Assembly: GCF_039877785.1 (NCBI RefSeq)
Contig: NC_092066.1
Location: forward strand, 5,379,152 to 5,443,151
DNA from: Chaetodon trifascialis
Lineage: Eukaryota
Direction: 5' to 3'
DNA: 64,000 nt
The position numbers and the translations under genes are program-made. A model generated the notes under the pieces. The model worked only from the letters and a program-made list of their open reading frames with translations, had not been told where the DNA came from and made no database searches. Positions 2,491-40,233 of this stretch are shown piece after piece; position 1 is the first letter of the stretch; each line of letters starts with the position of its first letter.

Positions 2491-4600
2491 GTGAGTTAAC
2501 GTTTAAAAACTAGCTAACGTTCGTGTTTAAAGCGCACCATAAACCGAACATGTCGGTTAATGTCTGTGAAAGTAACCGCGAATGACGATGGAAATGCACT
2601 GTTTGACAGGAGCGATACGACAACCTGGATCTGGACTTGGAGTGTGAAGGAGGAGGCGTAGCTGTGAGTGTTATCTGTCCGTTGTCTTTCATGAAAGTTT
2701 AGCCAGCTAACGTTAGTGTTGAAAGGTTTTTTGCGGAGCTGCATTTACAGTTTGCTGAAGTCAGTTAACGACCGTGGTTTACCGAATTTAACCGACCTAA
2801 CCTCAATCTGTGCGACGGAAACTCTCCATGTACAAACACACACTTACACAGTGAAGTCCAAAAGTATGTGCTCATGTTTTCTGTTGTGCTGGCGCATCGG
2901 ATTTAACATCTAACAATGACTATGAGGCTGAAAAGCTGACTCTCAGCTTTGAGTGCTCAGTGTACAAACCGTAGCTCTGTCATCACGGCCGGATTAACCG
3001 ACCAGCATGGTCCAGGGCGAAAATGTGCCACTGGGCCCCCATTAACCCCCCACACCAGATTAGATATATTAATATGAATATCCACAGCACAAGACTGCAT
3101 CAAGTTTGAGAAATTAAAGAATGAGGCTGGTTGCATAGGTTGTTTGCTGTAACTTGATGTTGGATTCAAATGGAGGGCAGGAAGTGAAAACCAATGGACG
3201 AGATGGAGGAAAGTTCGTAATCTGCTAGTTTAGAAGAAATTACAAGAGAAAACTGTACAGAAAATCAGAGAAAATGTTGGATGTGACCTTTATGTTATGA
3301 GGCAGCTGCTATTGAGGCAGTAGATATAACAACTACCTGCTCATTCAGATGTCATTCTGCTCTAGAAACCAAATCAAAGTATTCAAAAGTATGGAGGCAA
3401 ACAACTTTCTTGTTAGCCGTTGGGTGCACAACCTTGGTACCTAGGCTTTCCCCCTTATGGACAACAACTTTTGGTACTCGATCAAGCTCCTTATGGTGTC
3501 TCGGTTTGATCAAATTGACCAACCATAATCACAACACAGCTGCATTTTGAGTGTGTGTTGAAGTGCCTCCTATGCAGAAAATCACTTCCTGCCCTCCATC
3601 TGCAACTCGTGCCACAAAAAAGAGTGATGTGACGATATTTCAACAAATCCCATGAAAAGACCAAAACCAACAACGTGTTGCTACTGACTGACAAAAATCT
3701 TTAAACACAACTTACAAATATATAATTCGTTTTTTAATATAGGCTCAGAAATTTTCTAAAGCAGCTGGGCACTGCAGTTTTTAAAAAACGTTACTTAAGT
3801 TTGGGACTACTTTTAGCAGTGGATTAACACACTTTTTGTGTCAAGTGAGTATTTCCAGCTGCAGAGCAGTTTATGATGGACTGAGTCAAAATAGACTGAA
3901 GTATTCAAGTTATTGTGCTGAAGGAACATGTGCGTATTATTGAAGAGTCTTTCAGTTCAATGATCACAAACCAGTTGACTCATAACACACCTGAAGCTGC
4001 TGGAGCCCTTGAGTCCCTCCTACTTTATTTAATACTGTTATGTAAAGTACAGAAAGGGGTTTGTGTTCTACACTGTTTATTAGTTAAACCTGAAATAAAG
4101 CATCACAGTTTCTGTTTATATCAAGACGATCATCAAGAAACTTACAGACCTTTTTGTTTACAGCTGCATCCTTAGAAAAGGCTTTAAATGTTAAGCTAAA
4201 AAAGGCTAAAATCTGTTTACTGTCCAGTCTGATGTATTGTAGTGCTCCAGTCGTTCTTTAACAGGCTGATCAGTATTATGGTCAGTTTTCACAGAGCTAG
4301 AAACGCACCAATCACCCTAAATTTACTGTCGTCAAGGTTTCAAGTCCAGACATGAAACCAGCTTCAAGTCCGGACTTGAAACCTGGACCGTGGGATGTGA
4401 ACCAGTGAATGCGTCCGCTCATCCATAGAGTCATCTGTGAATTGTCGGTCATTCGAAGCATCTTTTCCGTGCAGGGGCAGATTGATGCTGCTGACTCACA
4501 GGTCATGGCAGCGAACGTTCACCCTCTGTTACTCGCTCACTCTCACTGAAGCTGCTCTGTCAGAACTGAATTAGTTTGCTCTTTTTCGCCCCTCATGCAG

Positions 4601-16587: not shown

Positions 16588-17078
16588 GTAAGTGAATAGA
16601 TGTTCATATTTATATAACAATAATAATGTAATATTTCACTGTCTGGCATCTTTGCTCTCTCAAAGTGGTATTCAGCCATGCAGATTTCACGTGGAGTGTT
16701 GAGATGTAAAATATCTTCCACGACCTCAATATAATTATGAGAATAAAATTTAATTTGTTCTCTCCTCAAATCTCTGAAACGTCGCATTTGAAAAACTATG
16801 ATTGATAAAAACAGTGACTCAGAAACAATGCCAGCACTCCTCTGGATAATCCACAGAACATGCTGTCAGATGGTTCCTTTATTAGAGTAGCTCCAAAGAA
16901 AAAGCTGATGACAGAAGGTTGTGTGGATTATCAGAAAATCAGAACCTGGTTTCTACGGTTTTGTGGGAGTCGAATGGTTAAATGAAACGATCTGCATGCA
17001 GACGTACACCAGTGGTGAGTGAGAGACGATGACGTTTAAAGATAATGAAGGTTATAACTCTCGTCTTGCTTCTCTCAG

Positions 17079-18021
17079 GGCTTTTGCTGTGACGGCGGAG
17101 AAGGTGCAGAAGGGCATCCGTGTCTTCAACAAACTGTTCTCGGAGCGCGCTGAGAGCCTCTGGCAGCACGTCATCGACCTGAACAGCATCGCAGACGGCC
17201 TGGACAAGTTCAGCAAAAACACAAAGATCGCTCAAATCACCGGCGGCTCCACCAGTGCCATCGGGGGCGTGGCCACCATCGCCGGCCTCGCTCTGGCACC
17301 GGTCACCATGGGAACCTCCTTGATTGTGACAGCGGTGGGACTGGGTGTCGCCACGGCTGGCGGTTTGACGTCGGCAGGCGCCGGCATCTCCAACCAGGTC
17401 AACAACTCTATGGACCGCAAGAAGGTGGAGAAGATCGTGCAGGATTATCAGGAGAAGATGGTCGACCTCAACAAGTGCCTGAAGTTCATCAAGCAGGGAA
17501 TCGAGAACCTGAAGAAGTTCGACCTGATCAAGATGAAAGAACACGCCTACAACCGCGACTTCCCTGTGCTCAGCAGTAGTTTCTACGAGGACGGCGCCAT
17601 GGCAGGAAAGGCCATCCTCATCAACGCAAACGAGATCATGCGCGTGGTGCAGATCGCCAACGTGGCGGGCAGCACGGCGGCCAGAGCGGTCCAGATCGCC
17701 AGCATGGCCACCGGTGTGCTCACCGGACTCTTCGTAGGTATGGACATCTACTTCGTGGCCAAAGACTCCAAAGAACTCAAGAAGGGGGCCAAGTCCGAGT
17801 TTGCCGCCAAAATCAGGGAGGTCGCCACGCAGCTGCACGACGGTCTGGTGGAGCTGAACACGATACGAGAGGAGCTGCAGTGCACCGGGCCGGAAAACAA
17901 GGACGCAGGCGAAGAGAAAGAGAACGAGAAAGAAAACAAATACGACAGTTCAGATGAAGATGAAATCGACCGCATTAAAAAAGCCATTAAAAAGGACATC
18001 GAGAGCCGAGAATACGTTTGA
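17079..18021 (+). CDS. ApoL-repeat gene 1, terminal exon: a complete apolipoprotein-L (ApoL) domain plus a short acidic tail, with the stop at 18019-18021
   Basis: The acceptor is tctctcag|g at 17078, and phase 2 gives K-AFAVTAEKVQKGIRVFNKLF... The translation has the hallmarks of the ApoL family. A glycine/alanine-rich hydrophobic hairpin (KIAQITGGSTSAIGGVATIAGLALAPVTMGTSLIVTAVGLGVATAGGLTSAGAGI) is followed by ...ILINANEIMRVVQIANVAGSTAARAVQIASMATGVLTGLFVGMDIYFVAKDSKELKKGAKSEFAAKIREVATQLHDGLVELN... This matches the long ORF 17029-18021 in the track. An AATAAA at about 19622 could be the polyadenylation signal. Confidence 0.85.
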
Positions 18022-29500: not shown

Positions 29501-32500
29501 TCAAAGGTGAGCTCAGCAGTGTTCGTATGACAGCAGCATCGTCAGTGTTATCACATGCAGCAGTCACTGACCCTGCAAATCTGCCTGATGTCAGCAGGAG
29601 AAAGGAGGATTTTTCAGCGGGATCCTCCGGAAGTCTCCCAAGATTCCCGGAGAGGGAACACCTGGGCAGGTAAAAACGGTTTTGCACATGTTTTAGATGC
29701 TCAGTAACAAAACAAACAGATGGAGTTCGGCGTGTGAGTACATGAAAGATCAGAGTAATCGAAGTGGTCAGCGACGGGGATCTTCACTTTCTGTCAAACC
29801 GCTGAGACTTTGTTGTTTATGTTTGTTTCAGGATAAACAGCAGCTGCAAACGGACCCATCAGACAGTAAAGAGACTGAGAACAACAGCACGAACGTAAGG
29901 AACCCAGAGTGACTGAGTTAAGGAGGAGGCTGACTCTTATATCCACTTTGAACACTCCTCTTTTCCTGCTAACGACTGACTTCAAGCCTGATGTGTTAAT
30001 AGAAGCTGATTTGTAGCTTTACGTATTTCTTTCCTCCTTCCTGTATTTCCTGTACCAATAACTGAAAGAAAGAAAAGGTTTTTGCGAGCGAGTTCTTCTC
30101 TTCTTCACGTTATCAGGAGAAAGGAGGCGTTTTCAGCGGCATGTTCAAGAAATCTCCCAAACTGTCAGAGAAACCCCGACTGGAGGAGGTAAAGATTTAT
30201 AATCTGAGCATCTGCAGAATGGATGAAGTCATCTGAAAAGTAACTAAAGCTCTCAGACAAATGTAGTGGAGTAAGGTTACATTTCTATTACTCTAGTAAA
30301 GTACAAGTACCTTGAATTTTGTACTTAAGTACAGTCTGAATTGTGGCTCACGGCCTCCTCAGCCTTCCTGTCAATCTTCAGTCTTCATACTCTCACAGGT
30401 GCAGTAACTCTTGTGTTGCTCGTGTTGTGTTCAGGGTGCAGAGTCGTTGCACGGCGAGCTCTCCATTAGCTCCGACAGCCTGTCGGAGAACAAGGTGAGT
30501 CCTCATGATGGAAGAATATCTGCAGCTCCGGAGGAGGATCGGCCTCCTGATGCTGAAATGAAAGAAAAGAGGTCGTCGGTTTGCCTCAATGTGTTTTCTG
30601 CTCTCTGTAGGAGAAAGGCAGTTTGTTCAGCGGACTCCGGAGAAAGACTCCCAAAGCAGCCGGAGAGGTACGGCTCCTCAAACACGAGCAGGTGTCATGA
30701 GCATGACCACATGCAGCGCAGCCAGTTCGATGGATGTTCTTGAATGTGCTCACAGGCTGTAACATGAGTCATTGAAGTATTGAAGCATCTTCTGTTTCCT
30801 GGAGCTGCTCTCTGTTTCTGACTGTTTTATTCTCATTTCAGGAGAATCTGTCGGCACAGAAAGATCTGTCAGCCAGTAACGACAGTCTGTCTGAGGCTGC
30901 CAACACCAAGGTCAGCTTTTGCTGTAAAAGGAAGATTTGATTTCATTGTGTACATTTTCTATATTTCTTCATTAATTCGTTGTTGTCTTTCTGATTGTAG
31001 TAGTATGACGTGTCTCCATGTGTTTCCACATATGTTCTATGTCTGGAAGACTGAATTTAACTGTGACGTGTAAAATAAATGACTGTGTTTCAGGAGAAAG
31101 GAGGCGCCTTCAGTGGAATATTCAAGAAGTCGACCAGGCTTGCAGACAGTCCTCCCACAGAGGAAGTAAGACGTCCTCTCTGTTTGTCCCATCCAGTCTT
31201 CCTTTAATATTCTTAAACAGGTGTCAAGTGTCTCATAGGTAGTTCCTTTTAATCTCAGGTGTAAAAGAGCAGTCAGGGAGCTGGGCTCAGTGTTAATGAT
31301 GAAACATACTGTGGCTCTGACTGTTGTCGTCTTTCCTCAGGACAAACAGCCACCAGGCGATGAGCTCTCAGGTAGCAGTGAAGCTCCGTCTGAGAGCAGC
31401 GCCAAGGTGAGTTTTTCTTTTCTGCTTCATTCAGAAAACGGTCCTGAATAACTTCAGCTGAAGAGAGAGCACCCACTGCATGAACATGTGTGTTTCAGGA
31501 AAAAGGAGGAATATTTAGTGGAATATTTAAGAAGGCTCCAAAACCTGCAGACGCTGCTCAACCGGAGGAGGTAAAACTGTCATTTACAGCAAAGTCGACC
31601 TGTTTCATTACCTGTTTGTTGGTGGAAAATTAGGAACAAAAACTCAAGTGATTAGACGTTGGTGCAGATTCAGTATTTGAGCATTTTTTTTAACATTTTC
31701 ACATGATCGTCATGTATCCCATGACCATCTGTTATCAAGATATACTAATGCAAAACCTTTTATCACTTCTCACAGGACGAGTCTCCTGACAAAGAGCTCT
31801 CAACCAGCAGCGAAAATCTATGTGAGAACAAACAGGTGAGCGAGTTTAAGACGATGAATGACTTTGTTTCGTAAATGCTTCACACTCTCGCAGCTCATCC
31901 TGAAGCCTTTTTCTTGTCTGTCTCATCAGGAGAAAGGTGGACGGCTGCTCAGCGGACTCCTGAAAAAGACTCCCAAAGCGTCTGGAGAAAAGACGGAGTC
32001 GCAGGTGAGTTAGTGTTTACAGGACGTGAGATCAGTTTCCAAACCTGCACACAAATTCACCTGTTTCATAAAACATCAACGGGCCTGTTTCAGGACAGAG
32101 AGGCTCAGAGCGAACTGTCGGCCAGCAACGACGACCTGTCTGAGGGCAGCAGCACCAAGGTGAGCAGCGCAGCAACAAAAAGCTCCAGGTACACGTCTTC
32201 TGAGGGAGCGTTCACTGACACCCTGCTCTCTTTCAGGAGAAAAATATCTTTAGCAACATGTTTAAGAAGCCGCAGAAAGCAGCAGAGGGTGCTGCAGCAG
32301 ACAAGGTACCGAGATTTGATTCGGCCCATTAAATCAGCGTTATTTTAGTAAGTGTAGTGGATTTTTACTGTCGTCTGGTCTGAATGCAGGAGCTGGAGGA
32401 GAACAGTAAAGATCGGTTATCAGGCAGCTGTGAAAATCTGTCCGACGCCGCCCCGAAGGTACTTCAGCATCAAAAGAAAGCCTCTTCTTCTCTGTTTTTC

Positions 32501-35423
32501 TGTGTGCTGCTGTCACATGAACACGGACTGAAACCTGATCACAGAGATCAGATTGAGGATGAGATGATATCTGTGTGTTCAACTAGAACAGATTACAAAT
32601 ACAGATAGGCACATCCTCGAGTGTGAGTGCGTCAGTTTGAGTCAGGTTGAGCTGACTTCCTTTGGGAGCGGCAGTAACTTCTGACTCTTGATTCACTCTG
32701 AATGTGTTCACTTGAGAAAATTGACAAAGATCTGTGTTTCAGGAGAAAAAAGGAGGCCTGGCTGGCATCTTCAAAAGGTCATCCAGCATCGATAACCTTT
32801 TCGATGAGGTGAGTGTCGGCCCTGTGCGGCCTCTGTTACGCCTGACGATAACGTCACTTTGACATGAATGAAATGAAACCGTGTTAATGGCTTTTTATCC
32901 CTGGTCTTAAATCAGGAGAAAGGTGGGCTGTTCAGTGGACTTCAGAGGAAGAAAACACCCAAAGCGTCTGGAGATGAAGCAGCTGCAGAGGTGAGTTTTA
33001 TGTTACGCTGCGAGCATCACTGTCTGTGGTTATCGTCCGCATTAATACAACGTCCATTGCTATTTTTTCAGGACAAAGACGACCAGAAGGAGCTGATGGC
33101 AAGTAATGACAGTCTGTCTGAAAACAACACCACCAAGGTACAGTGTTTATTTAAATTCACTTTAACATGCAGCAGACTTTCTCATGTACATAAAAAACAC
33201 ATTTTAGAATATTTTAGTTTGTTTTTGCTTCAGTTTGCACTTAAAAAATGAACATTTCGACATGCCAGTGCTGTTTTGTTTTATTTTTAACTGTGTTCAA
33301 TGTCTGTTTGCAGGAGAAAAGTATTTTCAGTGGCATGTTCAAGAAGACTTCCAAACCAGCAGAGGAGACGACAGCAGACGAGGTACAGTAATGACTCCTT
33401 CACATGAAGTTTATACTTTTGCTCTTAGTTTTGCTCTTTCTTATGTTTTATTTTCGGTTCAGGAATTAAACGCCGGTGATGATCAGATGTTCTCTGCCAG
33501 TTGTGAAAATCTGTTAGAAGCGACCACATCAAAGGTGTGAATGATGTCCGACCATCACACACAGCCTGTTTTTCTCTGTTCTGCCACTTACGATTGATTG
33601 TTTACGTGTGGATGTTTCGTCCGTTTCAGGAGAAAACTGGAGGACTGGCAGGGATCTTCAAGAAGTCTCCCAAGCCGGCTCCACGCTCCATTGTTACTAA
33701 GGTGACCGGAGGAGCTCGCTTTGTTTGATCTCATTTCTGTTTTTTATGGTAAAATTCTTCAGAAATAACCTTCAGCAAGTTGAAAAAAAAGTTCCTTTTT
33801 GTCCTCCAGGATCCGCTGAGCGACTCAAAGGAGCTGTCCGCCAGCTGCGACAGCCTCGTAGAAACCGCTGAGGTGAGACCTGAAGTCTGTGGATGCACTT
33901 GGTGACACTCAGAACAGAAAGCACGAGAAAGAAACGCTCAGCACACTTAAACCCTGCTGGACCAGCACTACCAGGAGACCTCGTGATTTAGACATTAGCC
34001 GCCACATCTGTACTTTATGTGGTGCATTCACACAAAATAAATTAAATCTGTATTTCAGTTTTATACTTTGTCCTCCAAGTACGACGTTGAAGCCCTGCGT
34101 GGCATCAGTGTTTCATTAGACGAGCGTCCATTCAGCAGCCACATTAATGACACAGTTTAGGGTTGTTTTTCCGACTTTCTTCATGTGTTACAAGCATAAA
34201 TACATGTTTGCAGCTCGTTCACATCAAGCAACAGCTGCTTTGCGGCTGTGCTTTAATGCGACAAACTGTTGTTGTCTGTCGTCGCTCATTTCAAATCTCA
34301 GCGAAGCCGCTGCTGCTCAACATGCAGCGAGCTGCGATCAAATCTCGTGTTCGTTCAGTTCAGCTTTAACGTCTGTTTCCTGACAACAGAAAACAGATGT
34401 TAAAAGAGCATTTGAAGCTCAGTTTGCAGAGCCTTCCTCTCTCCTGATCCTCTGCCAGCAAACATATAAGACAGATTGTCGGTGCCATTATTTACAGCTT
34501 TACATTTACTTTTTAACATCCCAGTTGGTTTTTGAGCTGCGACCCAGATGTTTCAGTGTCAGTAGCTGCGTTTCCATTACAGTTGTTCGCAAAATAAAAG
34601 CGATATTTCTGAAATTTCGACAAAGTTCAAGTGCTACTTGCAGGTGTTTCCATTGAACGGTGTTTTGCGAACTAACCGAAATTCTCGTAAATTCTCGGCC
34701 GTCCCGCGAGACTGGAAGATGGCCGAAAGCGTTATGCGTCTCGGTACACTGATCTCAGGAGCTGGTACGGCTGTTGCTGTCCTTATTATGAACAGAAGGC
34801 GGAGGCAACGTATAACTGTTCAAAGGCGAAGCCCTTATGTGTGGCAGCGGCCACGAATAAGGGATTTCTGGGAGAAGATTGTAAATGAGGAATTCACAGA
34901 CGAACTGTGGATACAACATTTTCGGATGACCCGGGCCACGTTCAACGAGCTTTGCGATGTTCTTGAACCTCTTGTGGCACCAGATGCGACATGTAAATGC
35001 GAAAAAAGTGTTTCCATTACACTTTTGCGATACGCTTTTATATTGACACGTCTGAAAAACCACCTCATGAGAGCGTAAAAATGTTTTTGCGATATTTGAG
35101 AGGATTTTCGAAATATAGGTGTTTCCATTACCAGTATTTTATTGCGATATTTAGGTTTTGCGCATTTCTAGGGGTAATGGAAACGCAGCTACTGACTCCA
35201 AACACTGAAATTTATTTCATTTTATTTTGCAGGAGGATCAACTGTTTACTAGTCAGGATAATCTGTTGGAAGCTGTGAGCGCCTCAAAGGTGAGTCTTGT
35301 AGAGTGTATTATTATTCTGTCAGCTCGTTCGGACTTTCAATGAATGCTTCATGTTTTATCTGTTGAACAGGAGAAAAAAGGAGGGTTTGGTGGAATTTTC
35401 AGGAGGACGCCCAAAACACATCA
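26594..35423 (+). CDS. ApoL-repeat gene 2, exon-pair repeat array: about 33 short phase-0 exons, mostly alternating type A (EKGG-FSG-FKK-PK) and type B (D--ELS-S-DSLSEN--K)
   Basis: All exons have AG/GT boundaries and lengths that are multiples of 3.
- 26594-26659: SDPTVLTGMFRRSQKGQTPSFT
- 26980-27057: SYLIDSCAEEEKSDDAPAKQAPGSKP
- 27138-27188: SALKGVMKGLQFKSSPK
- 28120-28224: ASVEPSPGG...EKNAEPKQ (AAG acceptor)
- 28332-28403: DFGGLIAGMFRKTPKEKTPSPALT
- 28484-28552: VSKADSDPEDAEEAEEKTSEQSH
- 28922-28990: EKGGFFSGILKKPNKAPEETPAQ
- 29098-29157: ENLSVSSELSASSDSLSENK
- 29284-29355: EKGGIFSGLFKKSPKAAEAAQTDE
- 29444-29506: DQQSLHDSLSGSNDNLSENSK
- 29598-29669: EKGGFFSGILRKSPKIPGEGTPGQ
- 29832-29894: DKQQLQTDPSDSKETENNSTN
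- 30117-30188: EKGGVFSGMFKKSPKLSEKPRLEE
- 30435-30494: GAESLHGELSISSDSLSENK
- 30611-30667: EKGSLFSGLRRKTPKAAGE
- 30842-30910: ENLSAQKDLSASNDSLSEAANTK
- 31094-31165: EKGGAFSGIFKKSTRLADSPPTEE
- 31341-31406: DKQPPGDELSGSSEAPSESSAK
- 31499-31570: EKGGIFSGIFKKAPKPADAAQPEE
- 31776-31835: DESPDKELSTSSENLCENKQ
- 31930-32004: EKGGRLLSGLLKKTPKASGEKTESQ
- 32094-32159: DREAQSELSASNDDLSEGSSTK
- 32237-32305: EKNIFSNMFKKPQKAAEGAAADK
- 32390-32458: ELEENSKDRLSGSCENLSDAAPK
- 32743-32808: EKKGGLAGIFKRSSSIDNLFDE
- 32916-32990: EKGGLFSGLQRKKTPKASGDEAAAE
- 33072-33137: DKDDQKELMASNDSLSENNTTK
- 33314-33382: EKSIFSGMFKKTSKPAEETTADE
- 33463-33534: ELNAGDDQMFSASCENLLEATTSK
- 33630-33701: EKTGGLAGIFKKSPKPAPRSIVTK
- 33810-33872: DPLSDSKELSASCDSLVETAE
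- 35233-35289: EDQLFTSQDNLLEAVSASK
- 35370-35423: EKKGGFGGIFRRTPKTHQ. Confidence 0.7.
34551..35209. mobile_element. non-autonomous Harbinger (PIF/Harbinger superfamily) miniature DNA transposon in an intron of gene 2, carrying a remnant of the HARBI1-like transposase N-terminus
   Basis: Terminal inverted repeats are tttcagtgtcagtagctgcgtttccattac (34551-34580) and gtaatggaaacgcagctactgactccaaacactgaaa (35173-35209). Sub-terminal gtgtttccatta(c) repeats occur at 34644, 35010, 35121 and 35170. The internal ORF 34638-35078 encodes ...RRRRQRITVQRRSPYVWQRPRIRDFWEKIVNEEFTDELWIQHFRMTRATFNELCDVLEPLVAPDATC..., the conserved N-terminal region of Harbinger/HARBI1-type transposases. The DDE core is absent. 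Confidence 0.65.
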
Positions 35424-35640
35424 GGTACGATTTTCGAGAGCGACAGACCAAGTGAGGGGAGCAGTCACATTCTTGAACACAAATAAAGAACACAGTTAGC
35501 AGCGTGATGTGAAATGATGCTAATAACAGGTATAAATGCAGAGAGCTAGCATTTTGAGTGCATTAACTGATCCCTATAAACTCCTGAATCCTGCACAGCT
35601 GTTAAACATTTATCTCTGCTGCCAATCTCTTCTTCTGCAG

Positions 35641-37342
35641 GAGAGTGAGGACATGGAGGCCCCGGAGGGAGGCGGGCTGAGACGCAGGAGAACCATCAAG
35701 AAAAAAAGACGGGTGAGCTGTCTGTTGTCCACGTTAAACACAGCTCGTCTTCAAAGTCGTGAAAGTTTGGAAAATGCCTCATTTTAACCGTTATGTTTTC
35801 AAGGCTGCAGTAGGAATGTGCTTGAATCTGAATATAGTCCTTGCACAGTGCTTGATTTTCAGCATGATTGTGTTAAAGGTCTTTCCTCATCGACGAACCC
35901 TTCTTCTCTCGGTTTGTTTTCTCAGGTCGTGTCATTCCGAGTCAAGACAACTCTTCCCAAAATACCGAAGATAAGTTTAACTTCTCAGGTAAGTGCTGAG
36001 CTCTTCCAGCTGATCCTTAGTTAACACTCACTGCGCTGTTTTCTACCTCGATCCTGTTCTTTGACTGCGTCACCACAGAGAGAAACATGCCTCATCCGCT
36101 TTTTATTCATATTTCCTTTGTTTTCTGTTTTTAGTATTAACAAGTGCTAAATTTCTCTAATGACATCAATTATTCTCTCCCCCGCCCCTACAGAGTTCAG
36201 ACCAGATGCCCATTATTGAGGAGGCCGTTGAGCTGCAGGACATGAGCCCAGCTCAGGTAACATGATATTATAATGCAGACATTTAGTGATGTTCACAAAC
36301 ATCCAATCAAGACTCAAACTGAGCCCAGATGTTCACTGAACATCTGTGTATGAATGCCTTGTTTCATTAGCCAGTTATTAAAATTTTACAAACGTAACAT
36401 CATATAAGAATCAGCAAATTAAATCCCTTATGCAAAGCTCAGCGCTGCTCATAAGAATCTCAGCCTGCACAAACAGGAACATGCTCAAAGCATTATGGGT
36501 GTTTTTAATAATATTGTTGGTAGTGTGATTCAATTAGTCATTTAATCGTGTATTTCTTTTGTAAAGCACAGCCTTTAGTACCAGTCACCACTCCACACCT
36601 GCAGCCTGTGAAGAATTAGCATTTAGCTTTTAGTTAGCTTAGTTTGAAGTGATCATGAGCGATGTGTGTGACAGTGAACACACTGGAAGAAGAAACCCTT
36701 TGCTGAACGTCAGCTATATAAAACCATACCGACAGTCAGCTGGTGATGGTTTATGGGATGCTGACAGGCACACAGAGGGAAGGGTCGTGGCAGATGCTAA
36801 CTCTTCACACTGAATTGTTTTCCAGGAGAGCTCAGTGGAGGTCCAGCCTGTGGAGATGGCTGCTTACCCCTCTGAAGACGACCCCCATGAACTTCAGGAG
36901 GTGTGTTTCTGGGACACTTTCACACCTGGAGTGTGGTTCATTTAGTCCAGAAAAGAGGCAAAATTAGATACTGTCGCAAACAAATAACTGATAATAAGTA
37001 CTATTAATATTACTACACTGCAAATTAGCTTTTCATTGACAGAGGTGTCTGTTTTCAGGAGAGTGATGAGTTGATGGAGTGGTGGAACACAGTCAAAGGT
37101 TGGTTTGATTGTTTTCACCCTTTGTTTGTTTGGACTGTTTGTTTAGCTGCTCCACCAGGAGAGTTATCACGGATGTCAGTGAAGACACACACAAAAATAA
37201 ACATAATAATTTGAGTGTAAAAGTCATAAAAAGATAAAAGAACCAGACACAAAACACTGTTTTACATATTTGCTTGCTGGTGGTTTCCAGGCTGGGCAGA
37301 GTGGAACGAGACATCCAATTTCCAGGAGGATGAGGAGGAGAT
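35641..37342 (+). CDS. ApoL-repeat gene 2, linker exons between the repeat array and the ApoL domain
   Basis: - 35641-35712: ESEDMEAPEGGGLRRRRTIKKKRR, a basic cluster that looks like a nuclear localisation signal (NLS)
- 35926-35988: VVSFRVKTTLPKIPKISLTSQ
- 36194-36256: SSDQMPIIEEAVELQDMSPAQ
- 36826-36900: ESSVEVQPVEMAAYPSEDDPHELQE
- 37059-37098: ESDELMEWWNTVK, phase 1 out
- 37291-37342: (G)WAEWNETSNFQEDEEE, phase 2 out
The last two are paralogous to gene 1 exons 15963-16002 and 16536-16587, with the same EWWNTV / W-E-- motifs and the same phases. Confidence 0.6.
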
Positions 37343-37541
37343 GTGAGTCTCATTTATGCTTAAAAAGTCTTACATTCATCGTGGTGAACCCTGCAGAAAC
37401 ATGTTGTTCTGTATTTGTCAGCTTTGGGGTTTAAATGTAAATATATTAAGACTCCATGTTTTGCTTTGTTCCTCAAATTTTGAACATTAGAACTTTAAAC
37501 TGCACCTCGTGAGTCTCACGCCTTCACTCGTGTCTCTCCAG

Positions 37542-37956
37542 GGCGCTGGAGCAGGCAGCTGATCGCGTCTACATGGCAGCTCGTCTGTTTGTGCGCCTTT
37601 TCAACCAGCGGGGGGCGTCCTTACAGCATCGCATCCTGGAGCTTTTGGCTCTGGCCGACGCTGCGGATCAGTTCCACAAGAAAACGGTGACGGCTGCGGT
37701 GGGGGGAGGGGTGGCCAGCGTCGCGGGCAGCGTGGCAACCATCACGGGGCTCATCCTGGCGCCGTTCACATTCGGTGCCTCCATCATTGTCATGGCGGTG
37801 GGCATCAGTGTGGCGACGGCGGGCAGCATCGCCTCAGCGACAGCCAATATCACAGATACAGTTCACTCCAACATGGACCGAAAGAAGCTGGAGAAGATGA
37901 TCCAGAGCTACCAGGAGGAGATCAAAGACATCAGAGAGTGTCTGGAGTTCGTGCAG
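37542..37956 (+). CDS. ApoL-repeat gene 2, ApoL domain part 1 (the hydrophobic G/A-rich hairpin region)
   Basis: The acceptor is ctctccag|g at 37541. Phase 2 gives M-ALEQAADRVYMAARLFVRLFNQRGASLQHRILELLALADAADQFHKKTVTAAVGGGVASVAGSVATITGLILAPFTFGASIIVMAVGISVATAGSIASATANITDTVHSNMDRKKLEKMIQSYQEEIKDIRECLEFVQ, and the donor is cag|gtgagg at 37957. The region is collinear with gene 1 residues of the 17079-18021 exon. It overlaps track ORF 37573-37998, whose read-through into the intron hits a stop. Confidence 0.85.
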
Positions 37957-38059
37957 GTGAGGAACCTCAGGTGTTACACATATCCGGTGTTTATGTGAGT
38001 GTGTACTGACAGACAGAGGTCCATCATAGTCAGATATGATCAGATCAGACAGTGAAGTT

Positions 38060-38460
38060 TGGCTCATCTCTCTCTGTGTCTCTTTCCCTCGCGCTCTCTC
38101 TCTCTCTCCCTCTGTGTGTTTCTCTCACTCCCTCTCTCTCTCTGTTTGTGTCTCTCTGTCTGTCTCGTTCTCTCTTGCTTCCCCCCCTTTCTGTGTGTGT
38201 CTCTCTCCCTCCTTCCCTCCCTCCCCCACTGTGTCTCTCTCTCCCTGTGTGTCTACCTCTCTCTTTCTGTGTGTGTGTGTCTCTGTCTCTCCCCCTCTCC
38301 ACCTCCCTCCCTCCCTGTGTCCTTCTCTCCCTGTGTGTCTCTCTCTCCCTCCTTCCCTCCCTCCCTCTCTGTGTCTCTCTCTCTCTTTTTCTGTGTGTGT
38401 CTGTCTCTGTCTCTGTCTCTCCCTCTCCCTCTTCGCCTCCCTCCCCTTGAGGTTTCTGCC
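38060..38460. repeat. TC-rich simple/low-complexity sequence ((CT)n, (CTCC)n and (CTGT)n variants) filling the intron that splits the ApoL domain of gene 2
   Basis: About 400 nt are almost entirely C/T, with interspersed tgtg. This generates spurious long ORFs on both strands (38036-38536 +, 38045-38632 -). Confidence 0.9.
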
Positions 38461-38585
38461 TGTTAAAAGGAAGTTTTTCCTCTCTGTAGATAAAGATTTT
38501 GGGGTCTGTCCCAGCTCTATATGGAAAGTGTCCTGAGACAACTTCTGTAGTGATTTGGTGCTGTATTGTCTCTGTGCGTCTTGTA

Positions 38586-40233
38586 GGCCGGTATGGACAC
38601 CCTGCAGGAGTGGGACTTTGAGAAATACTCACAGAGTGCTGCCAAAAAGGCTCTGAACCACAACCTGAAGCACGTGATGAAGGAGGGCGGCCGTGCCGGA
38701 AAAGCCCTGATGATCAACACCGATAAGCTCATCAGCACTGTGCAGGTTTTGGGCGCTGCAGGAGGCGCCGCCAAAGCCGCCCAGGCCATCAGCGTCACCA
38801 CAGGGGTCATGTCGGCCCTCTTCCTGGCTCTGGATGTTTTCTTCCTCGCCAAAGACTCCCACGAGCTCCGCAAGGGCGCCAAAACTAAGTTTGCCAAAAA
38901 GATCCGGGACGTCTGTAAAGAACTTCAAGACGGCCTCCTGGAGCTGAACAAGGTGAAGACGCAGCTGCAGAAGACCATGGACGGCATAGAGGTGGAGGAG
39001 TACGAGGAGATTGAGGAGGTGGAGGTGGAGGTGGACGAAGATTTAGAGTCGGATCCGAAGAAGCTGGCCGAGTTGGAAAAGGAGCTGGACATCCTGGAGG
39101 AGAAACTGGACAGGAAGGTCGAAGAGGAGCAGAAGAAGAGTAAAGAGATGGAGAAGGAAAACTTGAAAAATAAGACTGAGAAAAAGGAGGAGAAGAGCGT
39201 TAAGGAAAAAGGAGAGCCACAGGAAAAGAAGAAGGAAGAGGAAACGGGAGAAAAAGACGCTAAGAAAGAGGGAAAGAAGGAAAATAAGAAGGGGAACAAA
39301 GGTGAAGAAGAAAGCAAGCTTGAGATCCCTGACATGGAAAAAGAGCAGAAAAATGAGACCCTCAAAGAGGCCAAAGAGGAAGTTTTAAAGGAACAATCTC
39401 AGAAAGGAAAGAAGAAGGACAAAGACACCGAGAACCGAATTACAGCTTCAAAAGAAAAGGACGAGAGCGAGAGAGACACAATGAGAGACAGCGGAGCAAA
39501 TAAAAAGACAGACGAGAAGGGAAAAGAGGGCGTTAAGAGCAGATCAGGTGACTCCAAAAAGGAGGACTGGGGAGGAAAAGCAAGTTCTGAGAGGGTCAAG
39601 ACAGAGAGAGACAGTGAAAGGAGTCAGAGCAGGAGAGAGGAGGAAAGAGTGATGAACAAAGAGAAGGAGGAGGAGAGCGGGAGCACGAGGAGGCACAGCA
39701 GCAGGAGCGACAAAGACAGACCCCACAGGAGTGAAAGAGGGAGCAAACATGATGAGGAAAGAGGCACCAGCAAATACAGCGACAGGACGGAGAGCCGGAG
39801 GATGGAGGAGGAGAGAGGAGTGAGGGACTGGAGAGCTGAGATGGCAAAAAGCAGAGAGGAGAAGAGAGAAAGCAAGGGAGGACAAGAAGCTAAGAGAGAG
39901 ACGGCGAGGGAGGATTCGCATCGGAGTCACGGAGCGGCGTCGAGGAGGGAGCATCCGGAGAGAGAGGAGAGGAGTCACTACAGGAGAGGAGCAGCCCCGC
40001 ATGATGACCAGAGGGAGAGAGACGAGAAACGAGGGAGCAGGATCGAGAGTGCGAGGAGGCAGTTTGAGAGGGCGGAGGAGGAGGAGAGGGCGAAGAGGAG
40101 AGAGGATGGAGAGTGTCAGAGGAGGGATCAGCAGAGGAGAGGAGGTGAGGAGAGAGACAGGGAGCACGGACACAGCCGGCGAGGATCCCGAGCGCGATCC
40201 AGCGTGCTGCTGGAAGACGGACTGTACATTTAG
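38586..40233 (+). CDS. ApoL-repeat gene 2, terminal exon: ApoL domain part 2, then a long K/E-rich and a long R/E/D/S-rich low-complexity tail of about 400 aa, with the stop at 40231-40233
   Basis: The acceptor is cttgtag|gcc at 38585, and phase 0 gives AGMDTLQEWDFEKYSQSAAKKALNHNLKHVMKEGGRAGKALMINTDKLISTVQVLGAAGGAAKAAQAISVTTGVMSALFLALDVFFLAKDSHELRKGAKTKFAKKIRDVCKELQDGLLELNKVKTQLQ... This is homologous to the second half of the gene 1 ApoL exon. The tail continues as EVEEYEEIEEVEVEVDED...KKEEKSVKEKGE...RSDKDRPHRSERGSKHDEERG...RRGSRARSSVLLEDGLYI*. It corresponds to track ORF 38593-40233. An AATAAA lies at about 40532. Confidence 0.85.

Follow-up and report, generated by a model that had tools for sequence, protein, structure and literature searches.

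A translated, highly charged C-terminal tail on the fish ApoL-domain protein apold1a

In gene 2, the last coding exon ends in a translated segment at 38950-40233 of the window (the whole 64,000-nt stretch of Chaetodon trifascialis DNA that was analysed), and sequence comparison identifies the gene as orthologous to teleost apold1a (apolipoprotein L domain containing 1a). Judged by codon alignments, the tail that this segment encodes beyond the ApoL domain is an extension of the protein under purifying selection, weaker than that on the domain itself, and we lean towards reading it as a flexible, near-neutral polyampholyte tether that would present a PDZ-ligand-like C-terminus. Little is understood of the endothelial gene APOLD1, and its fish orthologue has ~430 additional residues; their bulk charge, their extreme C-terminus and a small number of short motifs are kept across the spiny-rayed fishes examined.

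Identity and exon layout of gene 2

The top database matches to gene 2 are named apold1a or si:rp71-1g18.13 and are 85-95% identical to it across the ApoL part. Its exons are colinear with the spliced transcript contigs of two relatives (L001 and L003), and the exon junctions coincide (Table 1). Pfam PF05461 (ApoL; gathering cut-off 25.9 bits) matches the products of 37573-37956 and 38587-40230 with 75.9 and 35.0 bits, respectively, and a local phmmer search with the tail alone points to homology with the apold1a tail of protein P0001 (E=1.9e-40). The exon carrying the N-terminal half of the domain is bounded by an acceptor AG at 37540-41 and a donor GT at 37957-58, its junction agrees with the spliced contigs, and it shares 89-93% identity with apold1a orthologues. 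Given that the second Pfam match stops at exon-product residue 121 (nucleotide 38949), the coordinate at which the tail begins is exact.

In the last intron, 366 nt of CT-rich sequence (38067-38432) are of low complexity (TRF); between the flanking blastn blocks the equivalent gap measures ~140 nt in a relative's genomic contig (L002) and ~600 nt in the window. Downstream of the stop codon, 41377-41417 matches the 3' end of the L001 transcript (2961-3001; 92.7% identity, blastn), and AATAAA occurs at 40533 and 41581. An exact look-up of the gene 2 exon product and of the gene 1 product returned no identical protein on record, and Pfam gave no matches to four unrelated ORFs of the window.

Table 1. 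Features of gene 2 in the window (~, approximate boundaries)
Feature	Position	Strand	Basis
5' part of gene 2 (apold1a orthologue)	31079..37376	+	tblastn with orthologue proteins, blastn with L001/L003, translations
Likely start ATG	31079	+	
Small N-terminal exons	~31082-31165, 33624-33695, 33807-33875, 35905-35994	+	
Further small N-terminal exons	~36817-36918, 37050-37103, 37289-37343	+	
Exon with ApoL N-terminal half, including hydrophobic hairpin	37542..37956	+	Pfam PF05461, E=5e-21
Last intron	37957..38586	+	sequence, TRF
Start of last coding exon, ApoL C-terminal half (exon-product aa 1-121)	38587..38949	+	Pfam PF05461 positions 222-297, E=1.4e-8
End of post-domain helix (KVKTQLQKTMDG), then acidic patch IEVEEYEEIEEVEVEVDEDLES	38950..39051	+	conservation, motif counts, AF2
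Conserved helix DPKKLAELEKELDILEEKLDRKV... (aa 156-198)	39052..39180	+	AF2, alignment
K/E-rich spacer (aa 199-331)	39181..39579	+	composition, pLDDT <50, indels
R/E/D/S/H-rich mixed-charge segment with conserved islands	39580..40173	+	composition, alignment
Island RRHSSRSDKDRPHRSERGS	39688-39744	+	alignment
Island EEERGVRDWRAEMAKSREEK	39805-39864	+	alignment
Island EDSHRSH	39910-39930	+	alignment
Island KRGSRIESARRQFERA	40027-40074	+	alignment
Conserved C-terminus SRRGSRARSSVLLEDGLYI	40174..40230	+	C-termini of long-tailed models
Stop codon TAG	40231..40233	+	
Probable 3'UTR (approximate end)	40234..41600	+	blastn against L001, poly(A) signal scan

Translation of the tail and selection on it

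The frame of the last coding exon starts at 38587 and stays open to the TAG at 40231-40233. A preliminary description of this DNA had put the stop-free run behind the ApoL domain at about 430 codons, and 38950-40230 holds 427 codons with no stop, against 9 and 25 stops in the two remaining plus-strand frames and an expectation of 16.5 (mean of mononucleotide shuffles) or 12.6 (first-order Markov simulation); zero stops were reached in 0 of 5000 trials for shuffles and simulation alike. Polyadenylation or splicing before 39000, looked for in the transcript contigs of the two relatives, was not seen in either. Both contigs run through the tail into ~1 kb of 3'UTR, which counts against the untranslated run-on that the preliminary description had allowed for, and the open frame is conserved in orthologues, the tail being kept in all retrieved isoform models of Solea (5), Mastacembelus (5) and Pholidichthys (6). 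A 120-nt segment of the window has no counterpart in L001; an intron was considered, but a deletion is more likely, and ORF P0005 is also without this segment. With its start at MDTLEEW, P0005 has the look of an unspliced call on genomic DNA, from a species closely related to that of L001.

Gap lengths are multiples of three in 14 of 16 and 15 of 15 cases in two nucleotide-level alignments (29 of 31 in total); for L003, which is more distant, 6 of 16 gaps in the nucleotide alignment are multiples of three, and this alignment is too unreliable for gap-phase counts and was not used. Codon alignments give a dN/dS of 0.22-0.30 for the tail, against 0.04-0.14 for the ApoL part at 38587-38949. In a comparison of frames, dN/dS is 0.37-0.38 for the ORF frame and rises to 0.77-0.97 when the frame is shifted. 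In low-complexity sequence, all of these values are sensitive to alignment and to compositional constraint. Also, differences at third codon positions of the tail are 1.5-1.7 times as frequent as at the first two. The earlier argument that a stop-free, purine-rich frame of this length points to selection agrees with both the frame-preserving indels and the frame-specific dN/dS. Compared with its closest relatives, the tail shows 57-71% identity over aligned codons together with many in-frame indels, and it changes mainly through such indels in purine-rich (GAR/AAR/AGR) sequence.

Composition, segments and predicted structure

The block order proposed previously is borne out by composition: an acidic EVEEYEEIEEVEVEVDED stretch is followed by a K/E block and then by an R/E/D/S/H block. 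The K/E block (exon-product aa 188-332) contains 28% K and 22% E at a net charge of +0.01, and the R/E/D/S/H block (aa 333-548) contains 23% R, 19% E, 12% S and 5% H, with E+D at 25%. Charged residues make up ~55-59% of the window's tail, its net charge is about zero and its opposite charges are well mixed (kappa 0.08-0.10, below the 0.15 of shuffled sequences). The underlying DNA is 78% purine and 8% T, with purines at 72% of third codon positions, and AGR codons account for 47 of 55 arginines in the tail vs 1 of 9 in the domain. Repeated units are visible in the K/E blocks of Xiphophorus and Stigmatopora proteins. Gene 1 (17029-18021), which had been credited with a 45-residue acidic tail, carries one of 46 residues following its ApoL domain.

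Apart from one confident and conserved helix, the 427-residue tail is predicted to be disordered. The AlphaFold (AF2) model has a helix at residues 101-133, low pLDDT at 136-150 and a single confident tail helix at 157-199 (block pLDDT 83-89), and pLDDT is below 50 for residues 204-548, the exceptions being a low-confidence helix (410-422) and a handful of residues. The acidic patch, in which Y-E-E-I lies at 39001-39012, is strongly conserved among 30 orthologues. The conserved helix has leucine-zipper-like 3-4 spacing at residues 160-178 before continuing as a K/E helix; 25 sequences without exception carry L160, L163, E166, E171 and L174, and the dN/dS of the segment is 0.10-0.21. The K/E spacer, by comparison, is variable in length, poorly conserved in sequence and the site of most indels relative to the relatives. 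The alignment of 30 orthologues has almost no positional conservation over most of the K/E block, and a moderately conserved island, KDKDTENRITASKEK, lies at 39415-39459. For the R-rich segment, with its four islands, dN/dS is 0.24-0.34. Pfam gave no matches in the tail.

At the C-terminus, a basophilic RRGS site lies ~15 residues upstream of the terminal DGLYI (40216-40230). The motif [DE]-G-L-x-I-COOH is near-invariant in long-tailed models, 47 of 52 of which end in I; among these 47, p-2 is L in 45, p-3 is G in 41, p-4 is D or E in 44, and p-1 is variable (Y, N, S, D, H or I). Class II PDZ-binding C-termini take the form hydrophobic-x-hydrophobic-COOH, with p-1 free to vary. The window ends in L-Y-I and so has hydrophobic residues at p0 and p-2, which makes it a candidate PDZ ligand on the strength of a pattern of only three to five residues. 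The assignment to apold1a, the conserved short motifs and the near-invariant C-terminus all go beyond the preliminary description.

KEKE motifs occur in K/E-rich tails, such as those of triadin, calnexin and MAP1B, and were reportedly defined by Realini et al. in 1994 as stretches of more than 12 residues with over 60% K plus E/D, without W, Y, F or P and without five like charges running. Residues 158-210, 213-246 and 249-282 of the exon product conform to this definition, which denotes a compositional class only and implies no homology or specific partner for the tail.

Distribution across fishes and comparison with APOLD1

An exhaustive phmmer search of 1.84 billion (1.84e9) proteins with the tail returned only 10 hits. 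Nine of these are C-termini of long fish proteins, with the ApoL domain confirmed here in seven and on record for two, and the tenth is a 95-residue fragment without the domain. In this search, tail homologues were found only at the C-termini of percomorph ApoL-domain proteins (apold1a). When the tail by itself was the query, a word-index search of proteins returned nothing, a false negative of its candidate selection: local phmmer at an equal database size gives E=1.9e-40 to P0001. In 47 orthologue models the charged fraction of the tail is 0.46-0.59, the net charge -0.02 to +0.07 and the mean K/(K+R) 0.78 in the proximal and 0.31 in the distal half; from these comparisons, tail length, near-neutral charge and the order of a K-rich proximal and an R-rich distal half are conserved in the fishes examined.

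A Gadiformes model has the C-terminus ...GSRSRANVALSDGLDI, and one island each was read off sequences of Lampris and of the earlier-branching euteleost Aplochiton. A profile HMM of percomorph tails did not reach the tails of Albula, Aplochiton, Lampris, cyprinids and protein P0042, and pairwise BLAST to tails outside the reach of the profile gave marginal local matches only (E=1e-7 to 1e-4). Homology of the tail beyond acanthomorphs is not statistically established. In otophysan apold1a (zebrafish, carps) the tail is just 50-80 residues long and is without a DGLYI-type C-terminus. Teleost apold1b resembles apold1a in its ApoL domain, acidic patch (here without Tyr, VEVEEEE) and start of the DPKKLA.LEE helix, but it ends at ...DPKKLAQLEE, without K/E or R-rich tail and without DGLYI. 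Given that otophysan apold1a is short-tailed and that apold1b stops at this point, the long tail is dispensable for the core function of apold1, a point against the proposed role as a tether.

Teleost apold1a models such as those of Anarhichas minor (LOC142956895), Cynoglossus semilaevis (apold1a) and Solea senegalensis (XP_043885659.1) share with gene 2 the ApoL domain and the exon structure, as well as the EEYEEI patch, zipper-like helix, K/E block, R-rich block and C-terminal DGL[YN]I. The tail is present in the apold1a database models of other fishes, yet it is unstudied; a literature search found no mention of apold1a and nothing relevant on APOLD1 together with PDZ. It is otherwise an ordinary feature of a gene that has already been modelled, and the finding is sound.

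APOLD1 has been traced to amniotes only (PMC8557400). The protein is located at endothelial junctions and Weibel-Palade bodies, and its loss leads to a human bleeding disorder (PMC9973481). Amniote APOLD1 (VERGE) is similar to gene 2 in its ApoL-type hairpin region (31% identity over 118 residues, E=1e-16) and in having a helix or coiled coil after the domain. Unlike gene 2, it is 161-352 residues long (median 246), has neither a K/E or R-rich tail nor a long N-terminal extension, and continues for ~25-30 residues past the post-domain helix.

Proposed role of the tail and alternative explanations

Under the tether reading, which we consider the most probable without regarding it as secure, the tail would be a flexible attachment to the ApoL domain in the membrane and would probably face the cytoplasm. 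Close to the domain, the short zipper-like helix and the acidic EEYEEI patch may serve as elements of interaction or oligomerisation, and the well-mixed K/E block would act as an expanded, non-sticky spacer, the exact sequence of which may drift. The R-rich part could contribute docking motifs and sites for basophilic kinases (RRHS, RRGS). With L at p-2, I at p0 and a variable p-1, the hydrophobic C-terminus would then dock a scaffold partner as a class II PDZ-type ligand, and phosphorylation at the nearby RRGS could regulate this docking. In this tail, nature offers a clean case of a disordered region in which physical features are under selection more than the sequence is, and the C-terminus is a candidate docking motif for which partners can be sought experimentally.

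An extended form of this proposal, which we consider improbable, is that the long tail is an insertion between the ApoL helix and an ancestral G-L-aromatic-hydrophobic-COOH motif, giving a phospho-regulated tether, with a K-rich spacer and a sticky R-rich part, to PDZ-type junction or cytoskeleton scaffolds. The comparison made here is between the fish ...DGLYI and the mammalian ...AGLFF, which loosely resemble each other. If true, an ancestral docking motif would be a testable handle on the molecular function of APOLD1 at endothelial junctions.

That the region is untranslated, a 3'UTR or run-on with an open frame as a by-product of T-poor composition, has a negligible chance of being right. 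Such purine-rich composition does lower the frequency of stops, and long spurious ORFs exist on the minus strand too, but composition would still leave the 9 and 25 stops of the neighbouring frames or the 12.6-16.5 expected from simulation and shuffles. This reading is already contradicted by the comparative sequence data, in which 29 of 31 indels are multiples of three, the dN/dS signal is specific to the frame and dozens of species share a conserved C-terminal motif directly ahead of the stop. A more serious contender, though still unlikely, is that the tail, though translated, amounts to filler that is essentially neutral and was produced by purine-rich slippage, with selection only for an open frame and a harmless composition, and with no part having a specific function. 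The barely conserved, indel-filled K/E block, the lineage-specific tandem expansions in other fishes, the strong purine bias at the DNA level (third codon positions included) and the fact that cyprinids and apold1b paralogues manage without a long tail would all fit this explanation. It accounts poorly for a dN/dS well below 1 solely in the ORF frame, for islands and a near-invariant C-terminus conserved across percomorphs, or for the recurrence of the C-terminal motif in the Gadiformes model and of single islands in Lampris and Aplochiton. In 46 of 47 models the K-to-R gradient, the charged fraction and the net charge stay within narrow ranges, and neutral drift should have brought frequent nonsense truncation, yet 47 of 52 long-tailed models share the terminal residue.

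The preliminary description had likened the tail to the RS/RD/RE domains of splicing factors and to MAP7-like E/K coiled coils. It is quite improbable that the R-rich half is an RS-like or Arg-rich mixed-charge domain conferring condensation or nuclear-speckle/RNA targeting on the protein or a cleaved fragment of it. Like nuclear-speckle domains of this kind, the tail is a disordered, well-mixed polyampholyte with an Arg-rich, Ser-containing distal part (R 23%, E+D 25%, S 12%), and it is arginine rather than lysine that gives mixed-charge domains their cohesion (10.1101/771592). RS domains have been defined by S+R of at least 0.6 in a 60-residue window at an S/R ratio of ~1, and mixed-charge domains by a charged fraction of at least 0.7 and a positive/negative ratio of 1±0.3, also in 60 residues (10.1101/771592, Greig et al.). 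S+R in the tail peaks at 0.42, in the 60-residue window starting at aa 333, and the 16 RS/SR dipeptides of the R-rich block are mostly isolated, with at most two in a row. The charge density is ~0.55, and no 60-residue window of the R-rich block reaches 0.7; exactly 0.70 is found in only five windows (starts aa 171-176), which are K-rich (20-22 K, 1 R). When every Ser is counted as phosphorylated, 57 windows pass the mixed-charge criteria. The likeness is compositional only, and the tail differs further from nuclear-speckle proteins in being joined to a membrane-inserting ApoL domain, in a protein for which Pfam gives no RRM or other RNA-binding domain, and in having no homologues outside apold1a in the exhaustive phmmer search. 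Slightly less credible still is a tail that forms a long, stiff rod of the MAP7/myosin type, as a coiled coil or as an ER/K single alpha-helix, and keeps the C-terminus at a set distance from the membrane. The confident helix at 157-199 with its heptad-like leucines runs into K/E sequence, and i to i+3/4 E-K pairs are abundant, but AF2 has no helix past residue 199 save the low-confidence one at 410-422, pLDDT beyond residue 199 is 33-45, most 30-residue windows contain 2-6 Gly or Pro, a hydrophobic content of 8-9% is too low for a coiled coil, and the tail has no Pfam match, MAP7 included. The automatic names 'myosin', 'neurofilament' and 'futsch' of several orthologues, which might be taken in favour of a rod, are artefacts of low-complexity matching; together with 'DNA ligase 1-like' and 'myb-like', they illustrate how the tail misleads automatic annotation.

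Identity and Open Frame of Gene 2

That gene 2 is apold1a and that its C-terminal tail after the ApoL domain is coding sequence is, taken as one joint claim, very nearly certain. The product of 38587-40230 matches hundreds of fish proteins carrying PF05461; the named ones among them are annotated as 'apolipoprotein L domain containing 1a', apold1a or si:rp71-1g18.13. The window comes from a fish genome: all database relatives of its ApoL genes are fishes, and the homologues of the tail are percomorphs. Placed by tblastn with orthologue proteins and by blastn with two spliced contigs, the gene extends from about 31079 (ATG) to 40233. Models of apold1a in many fish genomes already include the tail, and gene 2 is another species' copy. 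Orthologues also carry automatic names such as 'myosin-1', 'neurofilament medium polypeptide', 'DNA ligase 1-like', 'forkhead-associated domain-containing protein 1', 'microtubule-associated futsch' and 'myb-like protein X', evidently driven by the low-complexity tail.

Features of gene 2, its tail and gene 1 (nucleotide positions in the window; aa numbering of the 548-aa product of the last coding exon)
Feature	Position	Strand	Remarks
Gene 1	17029-18021	+	ApoL-domain ORF, 330 aa, intronless, Pfam E=5e-37
Gene 2, small N-terminal exons	from ~31079	+	series; tblastn/blastn
Gene 2, ApoL exon	37542-37956	+	
Gene 2, last intron	between 37956 and 38587	+	630 nt
Gene 2, last coding exon	from 38587	+	C-terminal half of ApoL and tail contiguous in one exon
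End of helix common with domain	aa 122-133		
Acidic patch	aa 134-155		IEVEEYEEIEEVEVEVDEDLES, nearly invariant
Y-E-E-I	39001-39012		within EVEEYEEIEEV
Conserved helix	aa 156-198		AF2 block pLDDT 83-89; leucines 160, 163, 167, 170, 174
K/E block	aa 199-331		predicted disordered; hardly any positional conservation; most indels
R-rich block	aa 332-548		islands RRHSSRSDKDRP, EEERGVRDWRAEMAK, DSHRSH, RGSRIESARRQFERA
C-terminus			SRRGSRARSSVLLEDGLYI

The Pfam ApoL match ends exactly at nucleotide 38949, and the frame of the last coding exon, entered at 38587, remains open until the TAG at 40231-40233. The stop-free frame noted in the preliminary description is confirmed, as the 427 codons of 38950-40230 contain no stop and the other two forward frames contain 9 and 25. 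Mononucleotide shuffles average 16.5 stops and first-order Markov simulations 12.6, and not one stop-free sequence arose in 5000 trials of each; the open frame is therefore not accounted for by the low T (8%) and high purine (78%) content of the interval. The blocks described from the sequence were likewise recovered, namely acidic EVEEYEEIEEVEVEVDED, then K/E (K 28%, E 22%) and then R/E/D/S/H (R 23%, E 19%, S 12%, H 5%). The tail is made of purine codons, with 72% purine at third positions and AGR used for 47 of 55 arginines vs one of nine in the ApoL domain, a make-up consistent with expansion through slippage in GA-rich DNA. Opposite the tail, three S/L/P/F-rich ORFs on the minus strand (38925-39374, 39544-40173 and 39890-40354; 149, 209 and 154 aa) are by-products of the pyrimidine-rich strand and not genes.

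The last intron carries a CT-rich low-complexity tract on the coding strand (38067-38432, 366 nt, TRF periods 2 and 86), shortly before the last exon with its purine-rich sequence. Several long ORFs arise from this tract on the two strands, all of them spurious. This tract is lineage-specific, since the flanking blastn blocks are about 140 nt apart in L002, a genomic contig of a relative, vs about 600 nt in the window. Further upstream, the N-terminal exons 31082-31165 and 33624-33695 both encode FQEK(G/T)GG(A/L)(F/A)(S)GIFKKS; several FQEK...GIFKKS-type repeats occur in orthologues, and the apold1b analogue is a repeated GMFKGxxQKVNPFKS. Amniote APOLD1 lacks this N-terminal extension, which is fish-specific.

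Transcription, Translation and Selection

Comparative evidence strongly suggests that the tail is expressed and translated. The Logan contigs L001 (SRR28473478) and L003 (SRR14563179), which come from relatives and which we infer to derive from RNA-seq, have splice junctions coinciding with the exons of the window, L003 joining four of them. Both cross the whole tail and its stop and reach 0.6-1.0 kb of 3'UTR; close to its end, the L001 3'UTR contains a block that aligns with 41377-41417. Every isoform model retrieved, whether from Solea (5), Mastacembelus (5) or Pholidichthys (6), likewise has the tail in full. Because these contigs and models keep it, the polyadenylation site or splice donor before 39000 that would have argued against the extension was not seen in relatives. 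A consensus-like donor, AAG/GTGAAG at 38953/38954, lies at the start of the interval within the invariant LNKVKTQ codons, and both transcript contigs run straight across it.

Gap phase was counted on nucleotide-level alignments built without codon information. Gaps were multiples of three in 14 of 16 cases against L002, where the two exceptions adjoin and compensate each other, and in 15 of 15 against L001. Nei-Gojobori dN/dS was lower in the ApoL part (0.04-0.14) than in the tail (0.22-0.30), and omega on the nucleotide alignment was 0.37-0.38 in the ORF frame vs 0.77-0.97 in shifted frames. Differences at third codon positions were 1.5-1.7 times as frequent as at the first two.

Architecture and Physical Character of the Tail

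The translated, selected tail is predicted to be disordered. It is a polyampholyte close to neutral overall, and both its motif islands and its hydrophobic C-terminus are conserved. The helix at aa 156-198 is a short zipper-like element leading into the K/E sequence, and AF2 pLDDT is below 50 across essentially all of aa 204-548. The two main blocks have a charged fraction of 0.55-0.59, a net charge per residue of +0.01 to +0.03 and 8-9% hydrophobic residues, and their charges are better mixed than in shuffles (kappa 0.08-0.10 for the tail vs 0.15 ± 0.03-0.04). Bulk features are kept over 47 orthologue models even where sequence differs, including length after the helix (203-391 aa), charged fraction (0.46-0.59), net charge (-0.02 to +0.07) and, in 46 of them, the change from a proximal K-rich half (mean K/(K+R) 0.78) to a distal R-rich half (0.31). 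The K/E block is enlarged by lineage-specific tandem repeats in Xiphophorus and Stigmatopora, where the sequences show some five units of ...KKSKESVLDIFKIKKEKKEEKSMKE... in X. hellerii (P0041) and some six of ...SLQKEKREKEKTP... in S. argus (P0020). In the tail of the window's gene, by comparison, all repeats are short and degenerate (TRF scores 30-55).

Two motifs deserve mention. The tyrosine of the acidic patch belongs to a Y-E-E-I sequence in 37 models; cyprinid models read Y-E-E-E there, and apold1b models have an acidic patch without the tyrosine (VEVEEEE). Phosphorylated Y-E-E-I is the textbook optimal ligand of Src-family SH2 domains, and its presence is only a lead towards a candidate phosphotyrosine/SH2 ligand. 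The C-terminal residue is I in 47 of 52 long-tailed models. Of these 47, 45 have L at p-2, 41 have G at p-3 and 44 have D/E at p-4, and p-1 can be Y, N, S, D, H or I. Class II PDZ ligands follow the pattern hydrophobic-x-hydrophobic-COOH, which this candidate C-terminus (L at p-2, I at p0, p-1 variable) matches at the sequence level.

Distribution across Lineages

An exhaustive phmmer search of 1.84 billion representative proteins with the distal 265 aa as query returned only 10 matches at E≤0.001. Nine of them fall at the C-terminal ends of long proteins (785-1627 aa) with the ApoL domain just upstream, Pfam-confirmed in seven and on record for the database proteins P0004 and P0036; the tenth is a 95-aa fragment without the domain. 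The named matches are all percomorphs (Solea, Pholidichthys, Oreochromis, Mastacembelus, Brachionichthys, Cynoglossus, Channa, Anabas and Dunckerocampus). Read by eye, and thus not statistically secure, the C-terminus of a Coryphaenoides (Gadiformes) model is ...GSRSRANVALSDGLDI, and islands appear to be kept in Lampris (...ETENCFTTEREK) and Aplochiton (...ETERGLRDWKAE). The tail of Albula is long, K/E/G-rich and ends in ...REPLSI. In cyprinids and loaches the protein continues for no more than 50-80 residues past the domain, and apold1b paralogues end at ...DPKKLAQLEE.

Amniote APOLD1 (161-352 aa, median 246) has no such tail, the fish gene holding about 400 inserted residues in comparison. 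The mammalian endings loosely resemble the fish ...DGLYI: among the amniote proteins P0143-P0262, placentals mostly end in ...(A/P)GLFF and marsupials in ...GGMFF. Bird and reptile models end otherwise (...PGPSS, ...RPSS, ...RRLAL), and a shared origin of the mammalian and fish C-termini is therefore only a weak possibility. APOLD1 has been traced only to amniotes (PMC8557400), and the literature searched neither mentions apold1a nor describes or studies the tail. A word-index homology search with the tail gave no match, despite a 68%-identical orthologue in the same database that local phmmer finds with the same query (E=1.9e-40); word-index nulls for low-complexity queries are not to be trusted.

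Alternative Explanations and Proposed Mechanism

The preliminary description had weighed a selected extension against untranslated run-on. The latter is extremely improbable, being contradicted by the transcripts, the indel phase, the frame-specific dN/dS and the isoform models, and the cautious preference for selection voiced there is correct on this comparative evidence from relatives. That the tail is neutral filler, maintained only in frame, agrees with the K/E block but is at odds with the islands, the C-terminus and the constrained bulk features, and we consider it unlikely, though worth keeping in mind. The analogies drawn earlier do not hold. An RS-like or R-rich mixed-charge domain, as in splicing factors, is quite improbable for the R-rich part, given that S+R peaks at 0.42 vs the 0.6 of published criteria, that a charged fraction of 0.7 is reached by five K-rich windows only, and that the protein context is that of a membrane protein. 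A long coiled coil or single alpha-helix, as the likening to MAP7 implied, is highly improbable in view of AF2 and the Gly/Pro content.

As a tentative and possible mechanism, we propose that the tail would extend from the membrane-embedded ApoL domain as a flexible tether with a docking end. The well-mixed K/E part is proposed to be an expanded, inert spacer: expansion is a known property of well-mixed polyampholytes, and lysine-based mixed-charge sequences lack cohesion (10.1101/771592). The R-rich part would offer interaction-prone sequence together with basophilic-kinase consensus sites, RRHS at aa 368 and RRGS at aa 531, the latter of which, about 15 residues upstream of the C-terminus, could gate a PDZ-type interaction. 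The tail neatly illustrates conservation of a disordered region at the level of its features, and it supplies a candidate C-terminal docking motif in an under-studied vascular gene.

Gene 1 and Other Features of the Window

Gene 1 shares 42-46% identity with apold1a proteins across the aligned region. Its acidic tail is present and short as described earlier, with a length of 46 aa rather than 45. A 286-aa ORF overlapping it on the opposite strand (16978-17838) is probably spurious. The first 1000 nt of the window show a strong C-over-G skew (GC skew -0.54); the 174-aa ORF at 401-925 has no Pfam match and may be a degraded repeat element.
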